From positions 1-64,000 of IMG/VR virus record IMGVR_UViG_3300024346_000039: a DNA stretch of 64,000 nt. One strand, written 5' to 3'. This DNA comes from a virus. The position numbers and the translations under genes are program-made. The first letter of the stretch is position 1, and every line of letters begins with the position of its first letter. Of the stretch, positions 1 to 6,739 are shown piece after piece. The notes under the pieces were generated by a model. It did no database searches, was not told the DNA's origin, and was given only the letters and a program-made list of their open reading frames with translations.

Positions 1-10
1 CATGAAAAGC

Positions 11-48
11 AAAAAAAAAAGAAACCCCCGATTTCTCGGGGGCTTCTT
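11..48 (-). terminator. Rho-independent terminator of early cassette 1
   Basis: Hairpin GAAACCCCCGA-TTTC-TCGGGGGCTTC preceded on + by A10 (U-tract on minus), just downstream of ORF 57..281. Confidence 0.85.
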
Positions 49-56
49 CACAACTT

Positions 57-281
57 TTAGAAGAAGAGTTCTTCTACTGCTGAAGAGGCTAGAAAGCGTA
101 ACTTTAGATTGAGGATACGGATTCCATATTCCTTTGCGAAGTTTTCTGCTTCTGCCTTTGTGTCTGCCTTGAATTGGTAAGCCTTGTTGCCTTCATAGAC
201 TGCCATAAAATGCTTCTTGCCGTTTGAGTTTGTGCCAGTCATTACTGCGATTAGTTCTGCGTCTGTTATTAGTTTAGACAT
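57..281 (-). CDS. Small early hypothetical protein (74 aa)
   Basis: ORF with AAAGGGAAG RBS, its own promoter and its own terminator. Confidence 0.8.
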   Translation of the reverse strand: MSKLITDAELIAVMTGTNSNGKKHFMAVYEGNKAYQFKADTKAEAENFAKEYGIRILNLKLRFLASSAVEELFF

Positions 282-333
282 TTGCTTCCCTTTGTTAGTT
301 GCCTTGCCCCCTGTGGCTTGGCTTCTTGGTCTA

Positions 334-362
334 AGTGTATCCGGTTAGATGGGTAGTTGCAA
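334..362 (-). promoter_or_regulatory. Housekeeping-sigma promoter P1 (TTGCAA-N17-TACACT)
   Basis: Minus strand reads cTTGCAA ctacccatctaaccgga TACACT; the same architecture recurs four times. Confidence 0.8.
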
Positions 363-394
363 GACCAAATGAAGAAATTGTTTAGATTTGCGGG

Positions 395-410
395 TGTGAG
401 TTACATCACA
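395..410. promoter_or_regulatory. CRP/GlxR-type binding site (TGTGA-gttaca-TCACA)
   Basis: Perfect TGTGA-N6-TCACA core, 32 nt upstream of the P1 -35 element. Confidence 0.75.
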
Positions 411-426
411 TTTTTCGGCGCTCGCA

Positions 427-506
427 AGTTTTTACTTTTTACGGGGTTTTTATTTTTCCAGCAAAAAGAAACCCCCTCTTTCGAGGGGGCTTCCTTTCCA
501 GACTTT
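427..506. repeat. ~80-bp inter-cassette direct repeat, copy 1 (includes terminator)
   Basis: AGTTTTTACTTTTTAC..TTTTATTTTTCC.GCAAAA.GAAA.CCCC..GGGGGCTT.CTTTCCAGACTT recurs at 1091..1168. Confidence 0.8.
461..494 (-). terminator. Rho-independent terminator of early cassette 2
   Basis: GAAACCCCCTC-TTTC-GAGGGGGCTTC hairpin (GAAA loop on minus) with adjacent U-tract on minus. Confidence 0.85.
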
Positions 507-879
507 AGAAGTGTGGGTCGAAGTATTCCATTCGCACACCGACTAGGAGAACACCAGAATTAGTTGCGCCTTCACGCATATAGCGTCCGTCTTTGCGGAG
601 TGTGTAGCGTTCTTGCTTTGCATTTGGGTTTGTAGTGAATTCGTAATCTTGGCTCTCTGAATAGTAACCATTTGAATCCACACGCTTTGCGATATCGCGG
701 GTAGCAATTACTGCCTTTACTTGTCCAGCCTTCTTTCCTGTTTTGTAGGTTTCAATTCCTACAACTGTGTATGCAAGTCGGTCAGACCAGCCAATCTGTG
801 TTGCGCCCATACCGATTTCAATTTCGGTAAGGGACTTGCTGTTGCCAGCAAGTAGATTATGAAATGAGCCGTAAGACAT
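505..879 (-). CDS. Early hypothetical phage protein (~124 aa; start moved to MSYGSF)
   Basis: ORF 505..924; the RBS AAAGGGGAG and promoter P2 position favour the ATG at 879 (or 888). Confidence 0.8.
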   Translation of the reverse strand: MSYGSFHNLLAGNSKSLTEIEIGMGATQIGWSDRLAYTVVGIETYKTGKKAGQVKAVIATRDIAKRVDSNGYYSESQDYEFTTNPNAKQERYTLRKDGRYMREGATNSGVLLVGVRMEYFDPHF

Positions 880-931
880 TTCTATCATCTCCCCTTTGTA
901 TCCATCGCCCCTTGCGATTTCCACTACCTAA

Positions 932-960
932 ATAATAAGGGTTGGCTACGGATAACGCAA
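932..960 (-). promoter_or_regulatory. Promoter P2 (TTGCGT-N17-TATTAT)
   Basis: Minus strand cTTGCGT tatccgtagccaaccct TATTAT. Confidence 0.75.
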
Positions 961-991
961 GTCCATTTGGCAAAAAAGGTTGGAAATGTCG

Positions 992-1007
992 TGTGATTTG
1001 CACCACA
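992..1007. promoter_or_regulatory. CRP/GlxR-type site (TGTGA-tttgca-CCACA)
   Basis: One mismatch to the core consensus; 31 nt upstream of the P2 -35 element. Confidence 0.65.
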
Positions 1008-1044
1008 CATTTGCACCCCTGCGGAAGTTGTTGAGAAGTGAAAG

Positions 1045-1077
1045 TTATCCACAGGTTTATCCACAGGGTGTGGATAA
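1045..1077. promoter_or_regulatory. Three perfect DnaA boxes
   Basis: TTATCCACA at 1045-1053 and 1057-1065, and TGTGGATAA at 1069-1077, each separated by 3 nt. Confidence 0.85.
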
Positions 1078-1090
1078 CTTTTCTTCTGGG

Positions 1091-1168
1091 AGTTTTTACT
1101 TTTTACCCTTCTTTTATTTTTCCTGCAAAAGAAAACCCCCCTTGCGGGGGGCTTTCCTTTCCAGACTT
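1091..1168. repeat. Inter-cassette direct repeat, copy 2 (includes terminator of cassette 3 at ~1125-1156)
   Basis: Near-identical to 427..506; hairpin CCCCCC-TTGC-GGGGGG (GCAA loop on minus). Confidence 0.8.
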
Positions 1169-1388
1169 ATTCTTCCCCGATTTGCTTCAGGAAGTCATTG
1201 ACAATATCTAGAGCCTTTTCACGACCCTTTAGACCCTTACCTGTGTCAATTCCTGTTAGACGCTTGAACGCCTTTAGGCTTGACTCTGCGGTAAGTTGCA
1301 TACGCAACTCTGTGCGGATTTCAAGTTCTAGACCCTGCTTCAATACGAAGAGTTGCATTGGGCTGACTTGGATTTCAACTGCGGACAT
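1167..1388 (-). CDS. Small early hypothetical protein (73 aa)
   Basis: ORF with AAAGGGGGAA RBS, flanked by promoter P3 and a terminator. Confidence 0.8.
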   Translation of the reverse strand: MSAVEIQVSPMQLFVLKQGLELEIRTELRMQLTAESSLKAFKRLTGIDTGKGLKGREKALDIVNDFLKQIGEE

Positions 1389-1415
1389 TTGGTTCCCCCT
1401 TTCTTTGTTAGCCTA

Positions 1416-1444
1416 AGCATATAATCTTTTTACGGATAGTGCAA
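1416..1444 (-). promoter_or_regulatory. Promoter P3 (TTGCAC-N17-TATGCT)
   Basis: Same architecture as P1 and P2. Confidence 0.75.
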
Positions 1445-1474
1445 GTTCATTGACGATTTTTCTTTCCTATTTCG

Positions 1475-1490
1475 TGTGAGTTGCACCACA
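1475..1490. promoter_or_regulatory. CRP/GlxR-type site (TGTGA-gttgca-CCACA)
   Basis: One mismatch to the core; 30 nt upstream of the P3 -35 element. Confidence 0.65.
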
Positions 1491-1492
1491 TA

Positions 1493-1524
1493 GAAAAACC
1501 CCCCACATTTCTGCGGGGGGCTTC
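1493..1524 (-). terminator. Rho-independent terminator of early cassette 4
   Basis: AAAAACCCCCCAC-ATTTCT-GCGGGGGGCTTC hairpin downstream of ORF 1536..1790. Confidence 0.75.
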
Positions 1525-1535
1525 TCTTTAGTTCT

Positions 1536-1790
1536 TTAGGCTGATGTAGTCGCTAGGACTACGACCTCTTCTTCTTTGACCTCTGCGGGTGTTGGGTGAT
1601 TGAGGACGAGGTAAAGGATTTCCTCTGCACTCATTTCACGATGAGGTTCTCCGCGAGTTTCTTCTTGGATTTCTACCTTCTCGATAGGTGCGGTAGCACC
1701 TAGTAGAAGTTCTCTTACCTGCTCTTTTGTGTCAATGATGTAGCGGTAAGTAGTTCCCTTGATAGTAACTGCGGTTCCATATGCTGACAT
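1536..1790 (-). CDS. Small acidic early hypothetical protein (84 aa)
   Basis: ORF with AAAGGGGAAAG RBS and promoter P4. Confidence 0.8.
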   Translation of the reverse strand: MSAYGTAVTIKGTTYRYIIDTKEQVRELLLGATAPIEKVEIQEETRGEPHREMSAEEILYLVLNHPTPAEVKEEEVVVLATTSA

Positions 1791-1840
1791 TTTCTTTCCC
1801 CTTTTTTCTTTTTATTAAAGCCCTTTGCTTTAATGAGATA

Positions 1841-1869
1841 AAGGTATCTAACTCTTTGCGGTAATGCAA
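1841..1869 (-). promoter_or_regulatory. Promoter P4 (TTGCAT-N17-TACCTT)
   Basis: Same cTTGC -35 element and 17-nt spacer as P1-P3. Confidence 0.65.
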
Positions 1870-1942
1870 GTCCAAAAGGGTGTATGACTGGTCATACTTT
1901 TAAGCCTAGCCCCACTTAAGTTACTGACAAGTAGCGAAGTTA

Positions 1943-2170
1943 TTAGATACCCCCACCCCCTTTCATTTCTAGACCTATACCCCCCTTTGCTAGTCCTAGA
2001 CAAGTCAAGACCTATTACATATATCTAGACCCCCCACCCCCCTGCTAGAAATAAATATCTAACTACCTTGCTTTAGATTCTTCACTAGACATCTTGGCAA
2101 GCCTTCACTTTGAGAAGTTGTTTATAGTTGCTAGACCTAAGCAAGCCTATTAGACGCAAGCCTAGACAAG
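1943..2170 (+). repeat. Non-coding block with co-oriented CTAGAC hexamers and C-tracts
   Basis: CTAGAC at 1969, 1996, 2025, 2085, 2131 and 2162, plus variants; CCCCCACCCCC occurs twice. Confidence 0.6.
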
Positions 2171-2200
2171 TAAGCCTTGCCTTGAGCCATAGTTCATAAG

Positions 2201-2227
2201 AAAGTTGAGTCGCATTGACTCAAGTTT
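2201..2227. promoter_or_regulatory. HspR operator (HAIR)
   Basis: AAAGTTGAGT-cgcattg-ACTCAAGTTT matches CTTGAGT-N7-ACTCAAG with one mismatch and has the AAA/TTT flanks. Confidence 0.75.
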
Positions 2228-2254
2228 GTTGATACACATTACTTATATTAAAAA

Positions 2255-2349
2255 ATAACTTTTTGTTATATACATAAAATAAAATATATATGCCCTTGCC
2301 TTTTTATAACAAAAAGTTATAAGACAAGTTTTTGATAACAAAATGTTAT
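2255..2349. promoter_or_regulatory. Three copies of palindrome ATAAC-W5-GTTAT in an AT-rich tract
   Basis: Copies at 2255-2269, 2306-2320 and 2335-2349. Confidence 0.6.
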
Positions 2350-2507
2350 TTTTCCGGAAACGATTTTGAAAAACCTCGAATATAAGCGCTTCCTTCTCAC
2401 AGGCCAAAAGCATTTAATGGAAAGGTTCATACTTTCGATGCTTTCGTCCAAGAATCTTGGCCTCAGTAGTGTCTGTACGGCTTTGAAAAATGCTGTACAA
2501 TAGAGCA

Positions 2508-3008
2508 ATGAAACAGAAGGTAAAACTCCCCGACGATGAGGTTAGGTTTATCTCTGCTCTTGACCCCGTTTTAGTTCCCTCCCGCCTTCGTGCACTGTGG
2601 GAAGCAGGTTGGTCTTTAGGAATTATTGCTTCTTCAATCAAACCAGCCAAGCCAAAATCAACTGTGCATTTCTGGGTAAAGAACGCTCCCTCTACAGAGC
2701 AGCGTCGCCAGATACCAATGCCACCACCAAAATCTCTTACAGTCTCTGCACCCCTCCTAGGAACCCCCAGAACTCGTTCTATCTCCCCTACGGTTCCTCC
2801 CGAACTGAGGCCACGCTTACAGGAACTCTCAGCGCTAGCAAAACGCTATCGCGCCAAGACTTCTGACGATAGCCCACTAGCCCAAGCAAATAGGGAACTA
2901 ACAGAACTATCGCTCACGCTCTATCACAGAGGGGTTCCTGCTGCTGATATTGCAGAAGCGGCTGGAGTTACCTATCGTGCAATGGCTCGGCGGTTGAGTA
3001 ATGGCTAG
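2508..3008 (+). CDS. Helix-turn-helix DNA-binding protein (probably leaderless start)
   Basis: Two HTH-like segments (GWSLGIIASS..KSTVHFW; GVPAADIAEAAGVTYRAMARRL); TACAAT lies 6 nt before the ATG at 2508. Confidence 0.7.
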   Translation: MKQKVKLPDDEVRFISALDPVLVPSRLRALWEAGWSLGIIASSIKPAKPKSTVHFWVKNAPSTEQRRQIPMPPPKSLTVSAPLLGTPRTRSISPTVPPELRPRLQELSALAKRYRAKTSDDSPLAQANRELTELSLTLYHRGVPAADIAEAAGVTYRAMARRLSNG

Positions 3009-3348
3009 GCTATACAAAACAGCATCTGGAACCTACTCCGAGTCTGAACTAGTTGTTGCCGTCTGGGTCAATCCAAATCGCAAAAAGGGACGCTCTCAGG
3101 CAAGACTTCTTGAAACACTTACAACAGATAATTCCAGTATCCCTATTGCATTTCCTTTAGAAACACTTCAGAGAATTCAATCGTGGATGTTCTGCCCTGT
3201 GGCTCACGACCCATCAGATTTAGACCTGTGGCTAGTTCTAGAGAATGGAGCAACTAGGGAGAAACCTTTGCTAGTCCCGCTGACAATTGCTAAAAAGGCT
3301 CTAGGCTGGCAAGATTTCCATATCCCTTCAGAATATACGGAGAAATAA
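3001..3348 (+). CDS. Hypothetical protein
   Basis: Overlap-coupled ORF in the operon. Confidence 0.7.
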   Translation: MARLYKTASGTYSESELVVAVWVNPNRKKGRSQARLLETLTTDNSSIPIAFPLETLQRIQSWMFCPVAHDPSDLDLWLVLENGATREKPLLVPLTIAKKALGWQDFHIPSEYTEK

Positions 3349-3716
3349 TGAAAGTTCAGGCAGACGTCTTTCCAGCAGTGATTGCTCTTGCCGAACCTGG
3401 CTCCCTCGAAGACTATATGGAGTTGACCCCAAAAGGTGCTGCTCCTGAAGGAACTCGGCGTCTAGACCGTTGCCGCGTTGTGGTTTTCAACGATATGTTA
3501 ATGGTTGCTATTGACTCTCCAGAAGGAGCAAAACTTGTTTTCCGTGAAGCGTGTCATTCCTATATTAAGGATGACAAGAAAATTCACAGGGTAATTACCG
3601 AGAGTGGAAAGATTGTTTCTTTCCGCAAAGACGACAACTGCGGCTGTGGCTCTAGACTCAGGACATGGAACCCTTATGGACACATACTGATGGCTACGGA
3701 CGGCGAAAATGACTGA
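3348..3716 (+). CDS. Hypothetical protein (CGCG motif)
   Basis: TAATG-coupled ORF with GGAG RBS. Confidence 0.75.
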   Translation: MKVQADVFPAVIALAEPGSLEDYMELTPKGAAPEGTRRLDRCRVVVFNDMLMVAIDSPEGAKLVFREACHSYIKDDKKIHRVITESGKIVSFRKDDNCGCGSRLRTWNPYGHILMATDGEND

Positions 3717-3999
3717 ACCACTTACCTTTGTAATAGCAGCGCTAGCCGTATATAGAGTCTCCAGATTTATTACTACAGATACGCTTTTTAACCCAATCCG
3801 AGATAGAATATGGAAGAGGTTTCCACCAGAGACTTCAAAGTTCGGATACTGGTTTACTTGCACTTGGTGTACGTCCATTTGGGTCGCATCACTATCTGAA
3901 ATATCCCGTATCATTAATCCCAGCATCACATTGGGCATCCAAACAGTGTTCGCACTGTCTGCCCTTGCGGGGCTGTTAACTGCATACGAGGAAAAGTAA
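3709..3999 (+). CDS. DUF1360-like membrane protein
   Basis: Hydrophobic helices, YRVSRFITTD and CTWCTSIW motifs; lies just upstream of the portal. Confidence 0.7.
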   Translation: MTEPLTFVIAALAVYRVSRFITTDTLFNPIRDRIWKRFPPETSKFGYWFTCTWCTSIWVASLSEISRIINPSITLGIQTVFALSALAGLLTAYEEK

Positions 4000-4037
4000 T
4001 GTCCTTAGTATTCCGTAACAAAGACGAGGAGTTTTAA

Positions 4038-5792
4038 GTGGGCGTTTTTAAGCGCGATGAACAAGGCGAATCTGCCGAGGTTGTTCCTACTCCCGTCACC
4101 CCTAAAGCAAAGCCACAGAAGCGTACTAATAAATCAAAACAAACAGGTCGCTCTCGTCAAGTAGTTTTAAATCAAACACCAAAAGTAACTGGTGCAGCAT
4201 CAGTATTTTTATCTCAGCCAAACTCAGCACAGGCTGCTAACTATTCAACACCACGCACACTTACTGCCGCAGCAGCCCAAGTAAAGATTAATGACAAGGG
4301 CGAGTTCGAACAGTTTAAGCATCGTCGCACTGCTGCATCGTCAGCATGGCAAGCAGAGGCTTGGGAATATTACGACGCAATCGGTGAAATCAAATATGCA
4401 TTCAATTTAGTTGCATCTGTTGTATCTCGTATTCGTATCTACTCAGCAGTGATTGAGAATGCACACGAAACTCCAGTAGCAGTGAAATCATCTACACAGA
4501 TTGACCCACGCCTTGGTGCAGCAGCAGAGCGTGCGCTTGCACGACTTGACTCTGCATACGGCGGACAGGCTGGTCTTCTAAAAGATGCAGCACTTAATCT
4601 TTCAGTTGCTGGCGAATGTTATTTAGTTCAAATGCCAGAGCGCCCAGGTTCAGGATTGCCTGAGTCTTGGGACATTCGTTCCGTTGATGAAGTTATGGCA
4701 GATGCTCGTGGTGGGTTTAACATCATTGGTCGCCGTGAGCAATCATCTGGCGGACAAAATCAGAACAACGCAACAAATCGTCTTTCAAAGAATGCATTCG
4801 TAGGACGCATCTGGCGTTCACATCCACGCTACTCAGATGAAGCAGATTCATCACTTCGTGGTTTGCTTGATATGTGCGCTGAACTTCTTTTGCTTAACCG
4901 CACCTTCCGTGCAACAGCACGCTCTCGCCTAAACGCTGGAGCACTTTATCTTCCAGATGGTCTTTCAGTTGCTGCACAAGGCGACCCAGACCAGCCATAC
5001 GATTCAGATAACGAGTTGAATCCAAACTTTACTGCCGAGGAGGCAGAGGACGAGTTTGAAGAGCAGTTGATTGATGCGATGACAACTCCAATTCGTGATG
5101 AGGAGTCAGCATCAGCAGTTGTTCCACTTATTATTCGTGGTCCAGCAGAACTTGGCGACAAGATTAAGCAGTTTAAGTTCGAGCGTTCATTTGACCCATC
5201 ACTTGCAGAGCGTTCAGACCGCGTTCTAGAGCGCATCTTGCAGGGACTTGATGTTCCAAAGGATGTTGTAACAGGACTTGCAAATGTTAAGTATTCAAAC
5301 GCACTTCAGATTGATGAAGCGCTGTATAAGGCACACATTGAGCCAATGATGTTGCTTATCTGCGATGCTCTTACAGTTGTCTATCTTCGCCCATACCTCA
5401 TTGCACAGGGCTACAGCATCACCGATGTTGAGAAGATTGTTATTTGGTATGACCCATCAGCAGTTGCAACACGCAATGACCGTGCAGCAGATGCAGACTC
5501 AGGTCTTGACCGTGGTGCAATCTCATTAGATACATGGCGTCGTGCCCACGGCTTCTCGTCAGCAGATGCACCTACTTCAAATGAAATGGCGCTTCGTCTT
5601 TTGTCTGAGCGTGGAGCAATTACACCTGAACTTACTGAGGCAATGCTTCAAGCACTTGCTCCAGAGATTATGGATGCTGTTAAGCAAGCACAACAGGCTT
5701 CATCTGTCGCTCCTATTCCAGCAGATGTCCAACAAATTCTTGACCAAGCAACTAGCGGAGAAGCACCAGTTACAGAAGGGCAGGAGCAATAA
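4038..5792 (+). CDS. Portal protein
   Basis: 584 aa; WQAEAWEYYDAIGEIKY..SRIR motif of actinophage cluster-B-like portals; first gene of the head module. Confidence 0.8.
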   Translation: MGVFKRDEQGESAEVVPTPVTPKAKPQKRTNKSKQTGRSRQVVLNQTPKVTGAASVFLSQPNSAQAANYSTPRTLTAAAAQVKINDKGEFEQFKHRRTAASSAWQAEAWEYYDAIGEIKYAFNLVASVVSRIRIYSAVIENAHETPVAVKSSTQIDPRLGAAAERALARLDSAYGGQAGLLKDAALNLSVAGECYLVQMPERPGSGLPESWDIRSVDEVMADARGGFNIIGRREQSSGGQNQNNATNRLSKNAFVGRIWRSHPRYSDEADSSLRGLLDMCAELLLLNRTFRATARSRLNAGALYLPDGLSVAAQGDPDQPYDSDNELNPNFTAEEAEDEFEEQLIDAMTTPIRDEESASAVVPLIIRGPAELGDKIKQFKFERSFDPSLAERSDRVLERILQGLDVPKDVVTGLANVKYSNALQIDEALYKAHIEPMMLLICDALTVVYLRPYLIAQGYSITDVEKIVIWYDPSAVATRNDRAADADSGLDRGAISLDTWRRAHGFSSADAPTSNEMALRLLSERGAITPELTEAMLQALAPEIMDAVKQAQQASSVAPIPADVQQILDQATSGEAPVTEGQEQ

Positions 5793-6739
5793 TGTCTATC
5801 TCTAAGACACCTGCACCAAAGAAAGACCAGATTAAAGGCTCAGATAAAAACAAAAAGGGCTCTGCATCTGGTTCTAAGAAAGTTGTTTTTAGTAAGGCAA
5901 CAGAAAATTCTTTGGCTGAAAAAGTAAAGACACACAATGCAAAAGCACCAGAAGGTCGCAAAGCAACACTTGGAATGCTTAAGGCTGTGTACCGTCGTGG
6001 GGCTGGAGCATTTTCTGTATCACACCGCCCAGGTATGAACCGCAACCAGTGGGCTATGGGTCGTGTCAATGCTTTCCTTAAATTATTAAAGTCTGGCAAG
6101 CCATCAAACTCTGCATACAAAACAGATAATGATTTGCTTCCGTCAGCACATCCACGCTCTACAAAGAAGTCAGCATCTATTACCGCTTCTGGATTAGTTC
6201 CAGAAGAGCGCGACTTAGCAGAAGCGCTTATTGCAATTACTCAGAAGCACGGTCCGTTTGACCAAGATGGCACAGGAGTTTGGGCGGGATACACACCTGC
6301 TGAAGAAAATGAAGTTAGAGACATTGGTGTCAAGTGCAGCAATTGCGTCTTTTTTCAAGGACCAAACAAGTGTCAGATTATCTCCCTTGAGGTCGAAGCA
6401 GATGGTAAGTGCCGCTTTGCTGTAATTCCAGAGGGTGTCGTCTCAGTAAAGCCAGACTACAAAGAACTTGAAGATGAAATTGAAGACTACTTTATGGACC
6501 AAGAACTTAGTGTAGAAATTAAAAATAGAGAAGATTATGAGTCCGCAGAAGACGCTATCCTTGCTATGACAGAATATTCTGGTTATGGATATGAAGCAGA
6601 GTCTGCTATTCGTGCATCTTGGCTTCGTGCAGTGCGTAATGGAGATGACCCATTCCTACGAGCAGGAATGCTTGCAGTGATGGGACAAGACAGTCTTGAT
6701 GGAAACTTACTTCCTATCCTTGAGGAGGACGGCAAATAA
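5792..6739 (+). CDS. Head-associated protein: DUF5824-like domain plus a CxxC..C..C (HiPIP-like) domain
   Basis: AVYRRGAGAF..HRPG..QWAMGRVNAFL..DLLPSAHPRS; CSNCVFF..C..C. Confidence 0.6.
   Translation: MSISKTPAPKKDQIKGSDKNKKGSASGSKKVVFSKATENSLAEKVKTHNAKAPEGRKATLGMLKAVYRRGAGAFSVSHRPGMNRNQWAMGRVNAFLKLLKSGKPSNSAYKTDNDLLPSAHPRSTKKSASITASGLVPEERDLAEALIAITQKHGPFDQDGTGVWAGYTPAEENEVRDIGVKCSNCVFFQGPNKCQIISLEVEADGKCRFAVIPEGVVSVKPDYKELEDEIEDYFMDQELSVEIKNREDYESAEDAILAMTEYSGYGYEAESAIRASWLRAVRNGDDPFLRAGMLAVMGQDSLDGNLLPILEEDGK

Follow-up and report, generated by a model that had tools for sequence, protein, structure and literature searches.

The interval 334-2349 of a stretch of virus DNA of 64,000 nucleotides (nt), hereafter the window, carries palindromes resembling the binding sites of the host regulators CRP/GlxR and DnaA beside the promoters of small genes. 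The best-supported reading is that of CRP-type sites, probably together with DnaA-type sites, linked to the promoters of early-type gene cassettes, and of a separate conserved palindrome that resembles the HspR operator. The window covers bases 1-64000, the initial 64 kb, of a 75,586-base IMG/VR virus contig (IMGVR_UViG_3300024346_000039) with a CheckV completeness of ~49%. The contig originates from an uncultured freshwater actinophage, and the G+C content is ~44%.

Three complete genes on the minus strand (505-879, 1167-1388 and 1536-1790) occupy 852 of the 2016 nt of the interval, and a fourth (57-281) lies just to its left. Every cassette possesses a ribosome-binding site rich in G, a promoter of the form TTGCNN-17-TAnnnT and, as its terminator, a hairpin rich in G+C. 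From left to right, the cassettes and their CRP-type boxes are:

18-49, minus strand: terminator hairpin of cassette A.
57-281, minus strand: gene of cassette A, 74 amino acids, no family match; ribosome-binding site and ATG read.
334-362, minus strand: promoter PA, -35 TTGCAA (362-357), 17-nt spacer, -10 TACACT (339-334).
395-410: CRP/GlxR-type box 1, a perfect TGTGA-N6-TCACA with central TA, centre 40.5 nt upstream of the first base of the PA -35.
472-489, minus strand: intrinsic terminator of cassette B.
505-879, minus strand: gene of cassette B, 124 amino acids, match to phrog_33370 (PHROGs).
932-960, minus strand: promoter PB, -35 TTGCGT (960-955), 17-nt spacer, -10 TATTAT (937-932).
992-1007: CRP/GlxR-type box 2, C for T in the second half-site, centre 39.5 nt upstream of the PB -35.
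1136-1151, minus strand: intrinsic terminator of cassette C.
1167-1388, minus strand: gene of cassette C, 73 amino acids, no family match.
1416-1444, minus strand: promoter PC, -35 TTGCAC (1444-1439), 17-nt spacer, -10 TATGCT (1421-1416).
1475-1490: CRP/GlxR-type box 3, one C-for-T change, centre 38.5 nt upstream of the PC -35.
1499-1520, minus strand: intrinsic terminator of cassette D, with a C6/G6 stem, read from the sequence.
1536-1790, minus strand: gene of cassette D, 84 amino acids, no family match.
1841-1869, minus strand: promoter PD, -35 TTGCAT (1869-1864), 17-nt spacer, -10 TACCTT (1846-1841).

The original prediction had placed three TGTGA-N6-(T/C)CACA sites, three perfect DnaA 9-mers, a near-perfect HspR operator of the HAIR type and several unassigned palindromes in about 2 kb of intergenic DNA. 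All of these motifs were recovered where it had put them, but the description of the DNA as intergenic has to be corrected, as the three genes make up 42% of the interval.

The motif TGTGA-N6-[TC]CACA occurs at 395-410, 992-1007 and 1475-1490, all within 1.1 kb, and nowhere else in the 75,586 bases of the contig. A scan of the window counted four strand-hits versus 0.34 expected, a number reached in 0 of 100 shuffles (the null used for each motif). Actinobacterial CRP/GlxR recognizes the same palindrome as Escherichia coli CRP, TGTGA-N6-TCACA. Moreover, box 1 fits TGTGA-NN-TA-NN-TCACA, which we take to be the GlxR consensus of Corynebacterium glutamicum.

Conservation was followed in relatives obtained by a portal-relative scan of viral contigs, which returned at least 595 stretches; the best 80 loci were used for the comparisons. 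The closest relatives (L005, L007 and L008) have 97-98% portal identity, and the more distant sub-lineages compared have 74-83%. A further relative, G001 (loci L090-L092), is 127 kb long and 95% complete. In the three closest relatives, promoter PA is kept, and so is the sequence of the boxes, with changes confined to the central N6. Box 3 is intact in L005 and L007 though the spacer between it and the PC -35 has been rewritten; at the level of sequence, this is a clean phylogenetic footprint.

The boxes also keep a fixed distance to the promoters. A separation of 38.5-39.5 nt between box centre and -35 is found again in L040, L075 and at position 92994 of G001, and a separation of 28.5-30.5 nt is seen in other sub-lineages (L009, L022, L031, L037, L068, L076 and G001 at 74537 and 84135). 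The window and its relatives thereby fall into two distance classes ~10 bp, or one helical turn, apart. In the distant sub-lineages, TGTGR-N6-TCACA boxes precede canonical TTGACA or TTGACT promoters. A strict promoter pattern was matched at exactly these gaps for 17 of 28 distinct sites, compared with 0.5% of random positions; PC is such a match, at a gap of 30. Class I CRP sites are centred near -61.5, -71.5 or -82.5, on one face of the helix. Counted from the predicted transcription starts, the boxes of the window would be centred at about -74 (-73.5 to -75.5), and the two distances, one helical turn apart, would match the geometry of class I activation known for E. coli CRP.

In some lineages the imperfect half-site is the one distal to the promoter, and in others it is the proximal one, which fits a symmetric dimer and not a directional promoter element. 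Furthermore, at PD the three closest relatives have a CRP-type box where the window has another palindrome, GTATGAC-CA-GTCATAC. This swap indicates that the upstream boxes are exchangeable modules.

The original prediction was right that CRP, DnaA and HspR are not encoded in the window: a six-frame search of the contig for HTH_Crp_2, cNMP_binding, Bac_DnaA_C and MerR_1 returned no match. None of these domains was found above the family cut-offs in five relatives either (four at least 95% complete, one 86%); the only traces were two sub-threshold hits in relative G003 (12 bits, E ~0.02). The near-complete G001 possesses seven CRP-type boxes and no CRP/FNR-type helix-turn-helix, MerR or DnaA domain above cut-off. 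This makes the CRP of the host the most economical candidate for the protein that binds the boxes.

The genes of the cassettes are poorly characterized. Pfam gave no match for genes A-D, and the sole PHROGs match was that of gene B to phrog_33370, a family without assigned function; in the ESM Atlas, gene B groups with viral hypothetical proteins. An Rfam scan of 1-3200 returned sub-threshold, terminator-driven matches only. Stretches identical to gene B (575-725 and 778-908), gene C (1194-1373 and 1175-1384) and gene D (1543-1693) were found in RNA-library contigs from three studies. These metatranscriptome contigs are short, so that transcript ends cannot be read from them and the parts left uncovered are uninformative. 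They are weak evidence that genes B-D are expressed, because carry-over of DNA is possible. L005 lacks the whole of cassette B along with the CRP-type and DnaA boxes that belong to it (505-1160 compared with L005:5100-7400). The cassettes appear to act as units of insertion and deletion. An extra cassette was observed in L005 between D and the control region. Early timing of the cassettes, as assumed in the original prediction, is plausible.

The second type of site is concentrated in one short element upstream of PB:

1041-1081: DnaA-box element, a perfect 13-nt inverted repeat with arms 1041-1053 and 1069-1081, plus a 12-nt tandem duplication that gives the third box.

The arms of the inverted repeat read AAAGTTATCCACA and TGTGGATAACTTT. 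The 9-mer TTATCCACA starts at 1045 and 1057 on the plus strand and at 1069 on the minus strand, without any other copy in the contig; the three copies, versus 0.53 expected, all lie inside 33 bp. The duplication is shared by the window and L007, while L008 has the inverted pair only and L005 has none at this place. The element falls in the gap that separates the cassette C terminator from the CRP-type box belonging to PB. Its boxes would stand at about -115 to -150, far upstream of the predicted PB start. An extended box, AAAGTTATCCACAGG, precedes two other promoters: it lies at 84155 in G001, 11 nt from a CRP-type box, and at 1480 in L005, 19 nt from the -35. A 137-nt contig from a freshwater RNA library matches the DnaA-box element only (1042-1076, three differences) and has unrelated flanks, which means that in nature the element is also found in different sequence surroundings.

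A scan of bacterial genomes for TTATCCACA-N3-TGTGGATAA gave many matches. The identical inverted pair is present in chromosomes of Nocardia, Catelliglobosispora, Acidimicrobiaceae and Rubrobacteraceae. With the same flanks, the pair GTTATCCACA-N3-TGTGGATAAC adjoins dciA/recF and gyrB in Nocardia, and in an Acidimicrobiaceae genome it adjoins parB; these two are the origin-proximal cases among the loci with identified neighbor genes. The occurrence of the same element at origin-proximal actinobacterial loci makes binding of host DnaA to 1041-1081 plausible. In a Rubrobacteraceae genome, the arrangement of two direct boxes and one inverted box is identical to that of the window; this arrangement, with its 12-nt spacing, was seen in bacterial chromosomes (L098:3200-3260, a Rubrobacteraceae metagenome-assembled genome, and L167) upstream of a HATPase_c and TrmB-like gene.

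The element does not look like an origin, since no AT-rich unwinding element adjoins the boxes (1045-1077); the AT-rich tract closest to them (2225-2345) lies beyond two genes, at a distance of more than 1.1 kb. Neither is it a dense, promoter-free array of the datA type: there are three boxes, two of them derived from the 12-nt duplication, and elsewhere the box is linked to promoters.

The third type of site is found once, to the right of the cassettes:

2204-2224: HAIR-like palindrome, 13 of 14 positions of CTTGAGT-N7-ACTCAAG (one mismatch), no further copy in the contig.

As a match of this quality arises in 35 of 100 shuffles, the site alone is not significant, and it is its conservation that makes it real. 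The palindrome is present in at least 15 relatives. It lies 1833 nt upstream of the portal gene in the window. Of the 15 relatives examined, 11 have it at 1810-1836 nt, two others have it further out because of insertions, and the last two have it at 1733-1738 nt. Its right half-site is invariant. Since the surrounding sequence is otherwise unalignable, this fixed place indicates that the palindrome is functional. Possible binders are HspR or a phage protein, and it is also possible that it has none and serves as a terminator hairpin of the minus strand.

Further palindromes and repeats accompany it in the region between the cassettes and the virion genes:

1882-1897: palindrome GTATGAC-CA-GTCATAC, 20.5 nt upstream of the PD -35; also occurs in L005.
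1943-2170: non-coding block with CTAGAC and CAAGCC repeats and C-runs, poorly conserved beyond the closest relatives.
2255-2269, 2306-2320 and 2335-2349: three ATAAC-N5-GTTAT palindromes in an AT-rich tract.

A fourth ATAAC-N5-GTTAT is situated at 69625 of the contig, in a divergent intergenic region (69625-70005; L094:1324-1704). In the contig and in G001 (~6.2-6.5 kb), where the intergenic region is divergent as well, this palindrome is adjoined by a gene of 74 amino acids with a weak match to the helix-turn-helix family HTH_17. The copies at 2255-2349 are probably operators of this putative phage regulator.

Taken together, the interval is the inner end of an array of monocistronic, leftward small-gene cassettes, followed by a control region that precedes the rightward virion operon. 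In each cassette, the order is terminator, sigma-70-type promoter, ribosome-binding site and small gene. The CRP-type boxes would be upstream sites of the activator type, centred ~39 nt before the -35 and at about -74 from the presumed start, to which a dimer of host CRP/GlxR would bind. The boxed cassettes would then respond to the cyclic AMP (cAMP) and carbon state of the host in the manner of class I CRP promoters. The DnaA-box element would be an optional insertion upstream of one such promoter, PB, where host DnaA would probably act as a modulator and not in an origin function. The HAIR-like palindrome forms a separate, family-conserved element of the divergent control region, and the ATAAC-N5-GTTAT sites are most likely operators of a phage-encoded helix-turn-helix protein. 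We consider this explanation as a whole, from the cassette array with its class-I-type sites for host CRP/GlxR to the DnaA modulator and the separate HAIR-like element, somewhat better than an even bet. Of its components, the anatomy of the region and the enrichment, conservation and phasing of the sites were observed directly.

Several points weigh against it. The transcription starts, the early timing and every protein-DNA interaction have been deduced from the sequence, and the RNA-library matches may reflect the DNA carry-over mentioned above. Two of the three boxes have C for T in one half-site. The predicted box centres are 1-3 bp off the classical -72.5 and vary by 1 bp between cassettes. 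The perfect CRP palindrome is absent from the relatives G002-G005 (three complete, one 86% complete), so the CRP-type feature is lineage-specific and dispensable. For DnaA, the box consensus reported for Streptomyces and Mycobacterium is TTGTCCACA and not TTATCCACA. In addition, a stretch of the DnaA box, ATAACTTT, is also part of a frequent non-DnaA sequence of G001, where many promoters have ...CAATAACTTTCGTGTC just upstream of the -35. Because of this shared core, the box may derive from a modified phage-specific sequence, and could be a variant of a phage-specific upstream element. As for the HAIR-like palindrome, seven of the 14 distinct relatives have a left half-site that ends in C (CTTGAGC). 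A convincing -35/-10 pair overlapping the palindrome was seen neither in the window nor in the relatives, and no chaperone gene is present with it, so that the context of a heat-shock operon is missing. Finally, a phage protein of unrecognized fold could be the binder of any of these palindromes.

This last point can be extended to a different explanation, in which the palindromes are operators of phage regulators of an unrecognized family, the resemblance to sites of CRP, DnaA and HspR arose by coincidence or convergence, and the cassettes are middle genes under a phage activator. The contig is only about half complete and most of its proteins have no family, which leaves room for such a regulator, and the ATAAC-N5-GTTAT palindromes next to the HTH_17-like gene already resemble a phage operator. 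The replacement of a CRP-type box by GTATGAC-CA-GTCATAC at PD, a palindrome also found in L005, shows boxes acting as swappable modules, and the lack of CRP-type boxes in G002-G005 is what would be expected if a lineage-specific phage gene were required. On the other hand, three unrelated palindromes each correspond to a textbook site, in every case that of another actinobacterial master regulator; G001, with its seven boxes, has none of the corresponding domains; and the same DnaA-box pair is present in actinobacterial chromosomes. We regard phage operators as an unlikely explanation, but one to be reckoned with.

For the palindrome at 2204-2224, the alternative is an RNA hairpin or an intrinsic terminator, which would act on leftward transcripts leaving the AT-rich operator region, instead of a protein operator. 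The site is flagged as terminator-like on both strands, and in relatives a T-rich run such as GTTTTACTTTTTG comes after the hairpin of the minus strand. Every one-sided change leaves a G-U pair on the minus strand but destroys the pair on the plus strand: at pair 10-18, the minus strand has seven U-A and seven U-G pairs, while seven are unpaired on the plus strand. This asymmetry is mild, however, and no compensatory double change was found among the distinct relatives, with counts not above those of the shuffles; a structured RNA is therefore not supported. The stem has only 7-8 pairs, three of them G-C, and an invariant arm sequence amid unalignable flanks fits sequence-specific recognition better. 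A hairpin function is improbable in our estimate.

It has also to be considered that the region is the replication origin of the phage, with the DnaA boxes, CTAGAC iterons, conserved palindrome and AT-rich unwinding tract acting together. The order of iteron-like repeats (1943-2170), palindrome (2204-2224) and AT-rich tract (~120 nt) speaks for this, plasmid iteron origins often carry DnaA boxes, and the cumulative GC skew has its minimum at ~4-5 kb. The skew switch, however, coincides with the switch in gene orientation. The DnaA boxes are separated from the iteron block by 0.9 kb and two genes, lie between a terminator and a promoter, and adjoin promoters in the relatives as well. Moreover, the CTAGAC block is not conserved past the closest relatives, and the phage encodes its own polymerase and helicase. 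We give an origin very little credence.

The proposal that amplifying phage DNA titrates CRP, DnaA and HspR, thereby derepressing chaperones and blocking host initiation without any need for a function in cis, is the weakest: the motifs are clustered, their cognate proteins are not phage-encoded, the single HAIR-like site has no obvious promoter and clustered boxes are well known to titrate DnaA (datA of E. coli), but the sites are few per genome (3-7 CRP-type, 2-4 DnaA, 1 HAIR), form no dense promoter-free array and are gained and lost along with the cassettes (L005 has neither cassette B nor the DnaA element). L008 has moreover lost one box, and G002-G005 do not have the perfect CRP palindrome. 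In several lineages the CRP-type boxes keep a fixed place and helical phase relative to the promoters downstream of them, which is the signature of cis-regulation. A site that acts in cis can still titrate its protein, and hence a protein-free sponge for carbon, cell-cycle and heat-shock control, on top of any role in cis, keeps a residual and very small probability.

Of the two roles offered by the original prediction, this multi-regulator sponge found no support. The other, a wiring of phage genes to the state of the host, is supported for the CRP-type boxes, which are enriched, conserved, phased and without a detected phage CRP-family protein, and the DnaA boxes are linked to promoters; the HAIR-like site has no promoter or chaperone context. 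The expected enrichment over shuffled sequence was likewise seen for the CRP-type sites and not for the HAIR-like site alone. Conservation in related phages was observed for the CRP-type boxes and for the HAIR-like palindrome, with the exception of the perfect CRP palindrome in G002-G005.

The interval contains two copies of another repeat, an A-rich 15-mer:

428-442, minus strand: GTAAAAAGTAAAAAC, copy 1.
1092-1106, minus strand: GTAAAAAGTAAAAAC, copy 2.

Its 11-nt core, AAAAGTAAAAA, is present 31 times in the 127-kb G001, compared with 0.19 expected. Nearly all of these copies lie between genes, most of them in the same orientation as the small genes of that region (~75-105 kb), and they are placed ~50-70 nt upstream of the -35 or 0-25 nt before the start codon. 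Possible roles of the core are those of a phage-specific promoter, of a regulatory signal and of an RNA signal.

Small minus-strand genes are found left of ~1870, and from 2490 rightwards the plus strand encodes the portal, two giant head-associated proteins, the major head protein, tail proteins and the tape measure, with a DNA polymerase, a helicase, an exonuclease and an annealing protein downstream. Identity of the portal protein is 74.7% with the portal of Actinomycetia phage DSL-LC01 and 59-62% with the portals of large Microbacterium phages; a megablast of 1-6000 against phage records gave no match. DSL-LC01 is a lake metagenome-assembled genome with Actinomycetia as predicted host class, assigned without a CRISPR link. 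The operon begins with:

2490-3008, plus strand: first gene of the virion operon, helix-turn-helix-type protein (166-172 amino acids); the portal gene follows at 4038-5792.

Language-model features of this first protein cluster with viral helix-turn-helix proteins, and in some clusters with Sigma70_r4 (scores 0.86-0.87). As a lead only, its product may be a small terminase or a late regulator. Directly before it, the non-coding block 2349-2500 is conserved in 30 distinct relatives, with the order TCCGGAAACGATTT ... TCTCACAGGCCAAAA ... TTCAT ... TCGTCCAA, and TGTACG-N14-TGTACAAT follows just before the first virion-operon gene. No consensus RNA structure was obtained for 2349-2479 in 22 relatives (four invariant pairs, no covariation). 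The block may be a late-promoter, activator or packaging-recognition region.

If host CRP indeed drives a subset of the early cassettes, part of the take-over program of the phage would depend on the cAMP and carbon state of its host, and DnaA may add a cell-cycle input. This would be a testable link between host physiology and the outcome of infection in lake Actinobacteria, for a phage group that is abundant and uncultured. The phased, swappable upstream boxes would furthermore offer a natural series of promoter variants for the study of activator-dependent transcription in Actinobacteria. A full-text literature search revealed no description of CRP-type sites at early promoters of actinophages, and no precedent was found in the literature for GlxR/CRP sites in phage promoters, for HspR/HAIR in phages or for titration by DnaA boxes of phages. 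Host regulators at phage promoters are nevertheless well known, so the CRP-type boxes do not represent a new principle.

Compared with known systems, the palindrome at 2204-2224 resembles the HspR-HAIR operators of actinobacterial dnaK, clpB and lon in 13 of 14 positions. It differs from them in being single-copy, without a chaperone gene or an overlapping promoter, and in the changed left half-site of half of the distinct relatives. The DnaA-box element is similar to the sites of dnaA autoregulation, the DnaA boxes near lambda pR, datA and DARS in its clustered perfect TTATCCACA, 12-nt spacing, inverted pair and link to a promoter. It differs from these in having only 2-3 boxes, located far upstream (about -115 to -150), and neither an unwinding element nor an IHF site was identified next to them. 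The cassettes recall the host-takeover module of the Bacillus phage SPO1 and the early genes of T5, where very small genes without assigned function also lie beside structural genes, every one of them with its own ribosome-binding site, terminator and strong promoter of the host type; to our knowledge, such early arrays have not been described with upstream CRP-type sites. The setting of the boxes, lytic-type actinophage small-gene cassettes known from sequence, differs from that of class I CRP promoters, as do the centres 1-3 bp off and the two imperfect boxes. Like the class I promoters (lac-type) of E. coli and the actinobacterial CRP/GlxR regulon, however, the phage promoters combine a 16-bp TGTGA-N6-TCACA with a downstream sigma-70-type -35/-10, and the box positions, one helical turn apart and in either orientation, would be at about -64 and -74 from the predicted starts.

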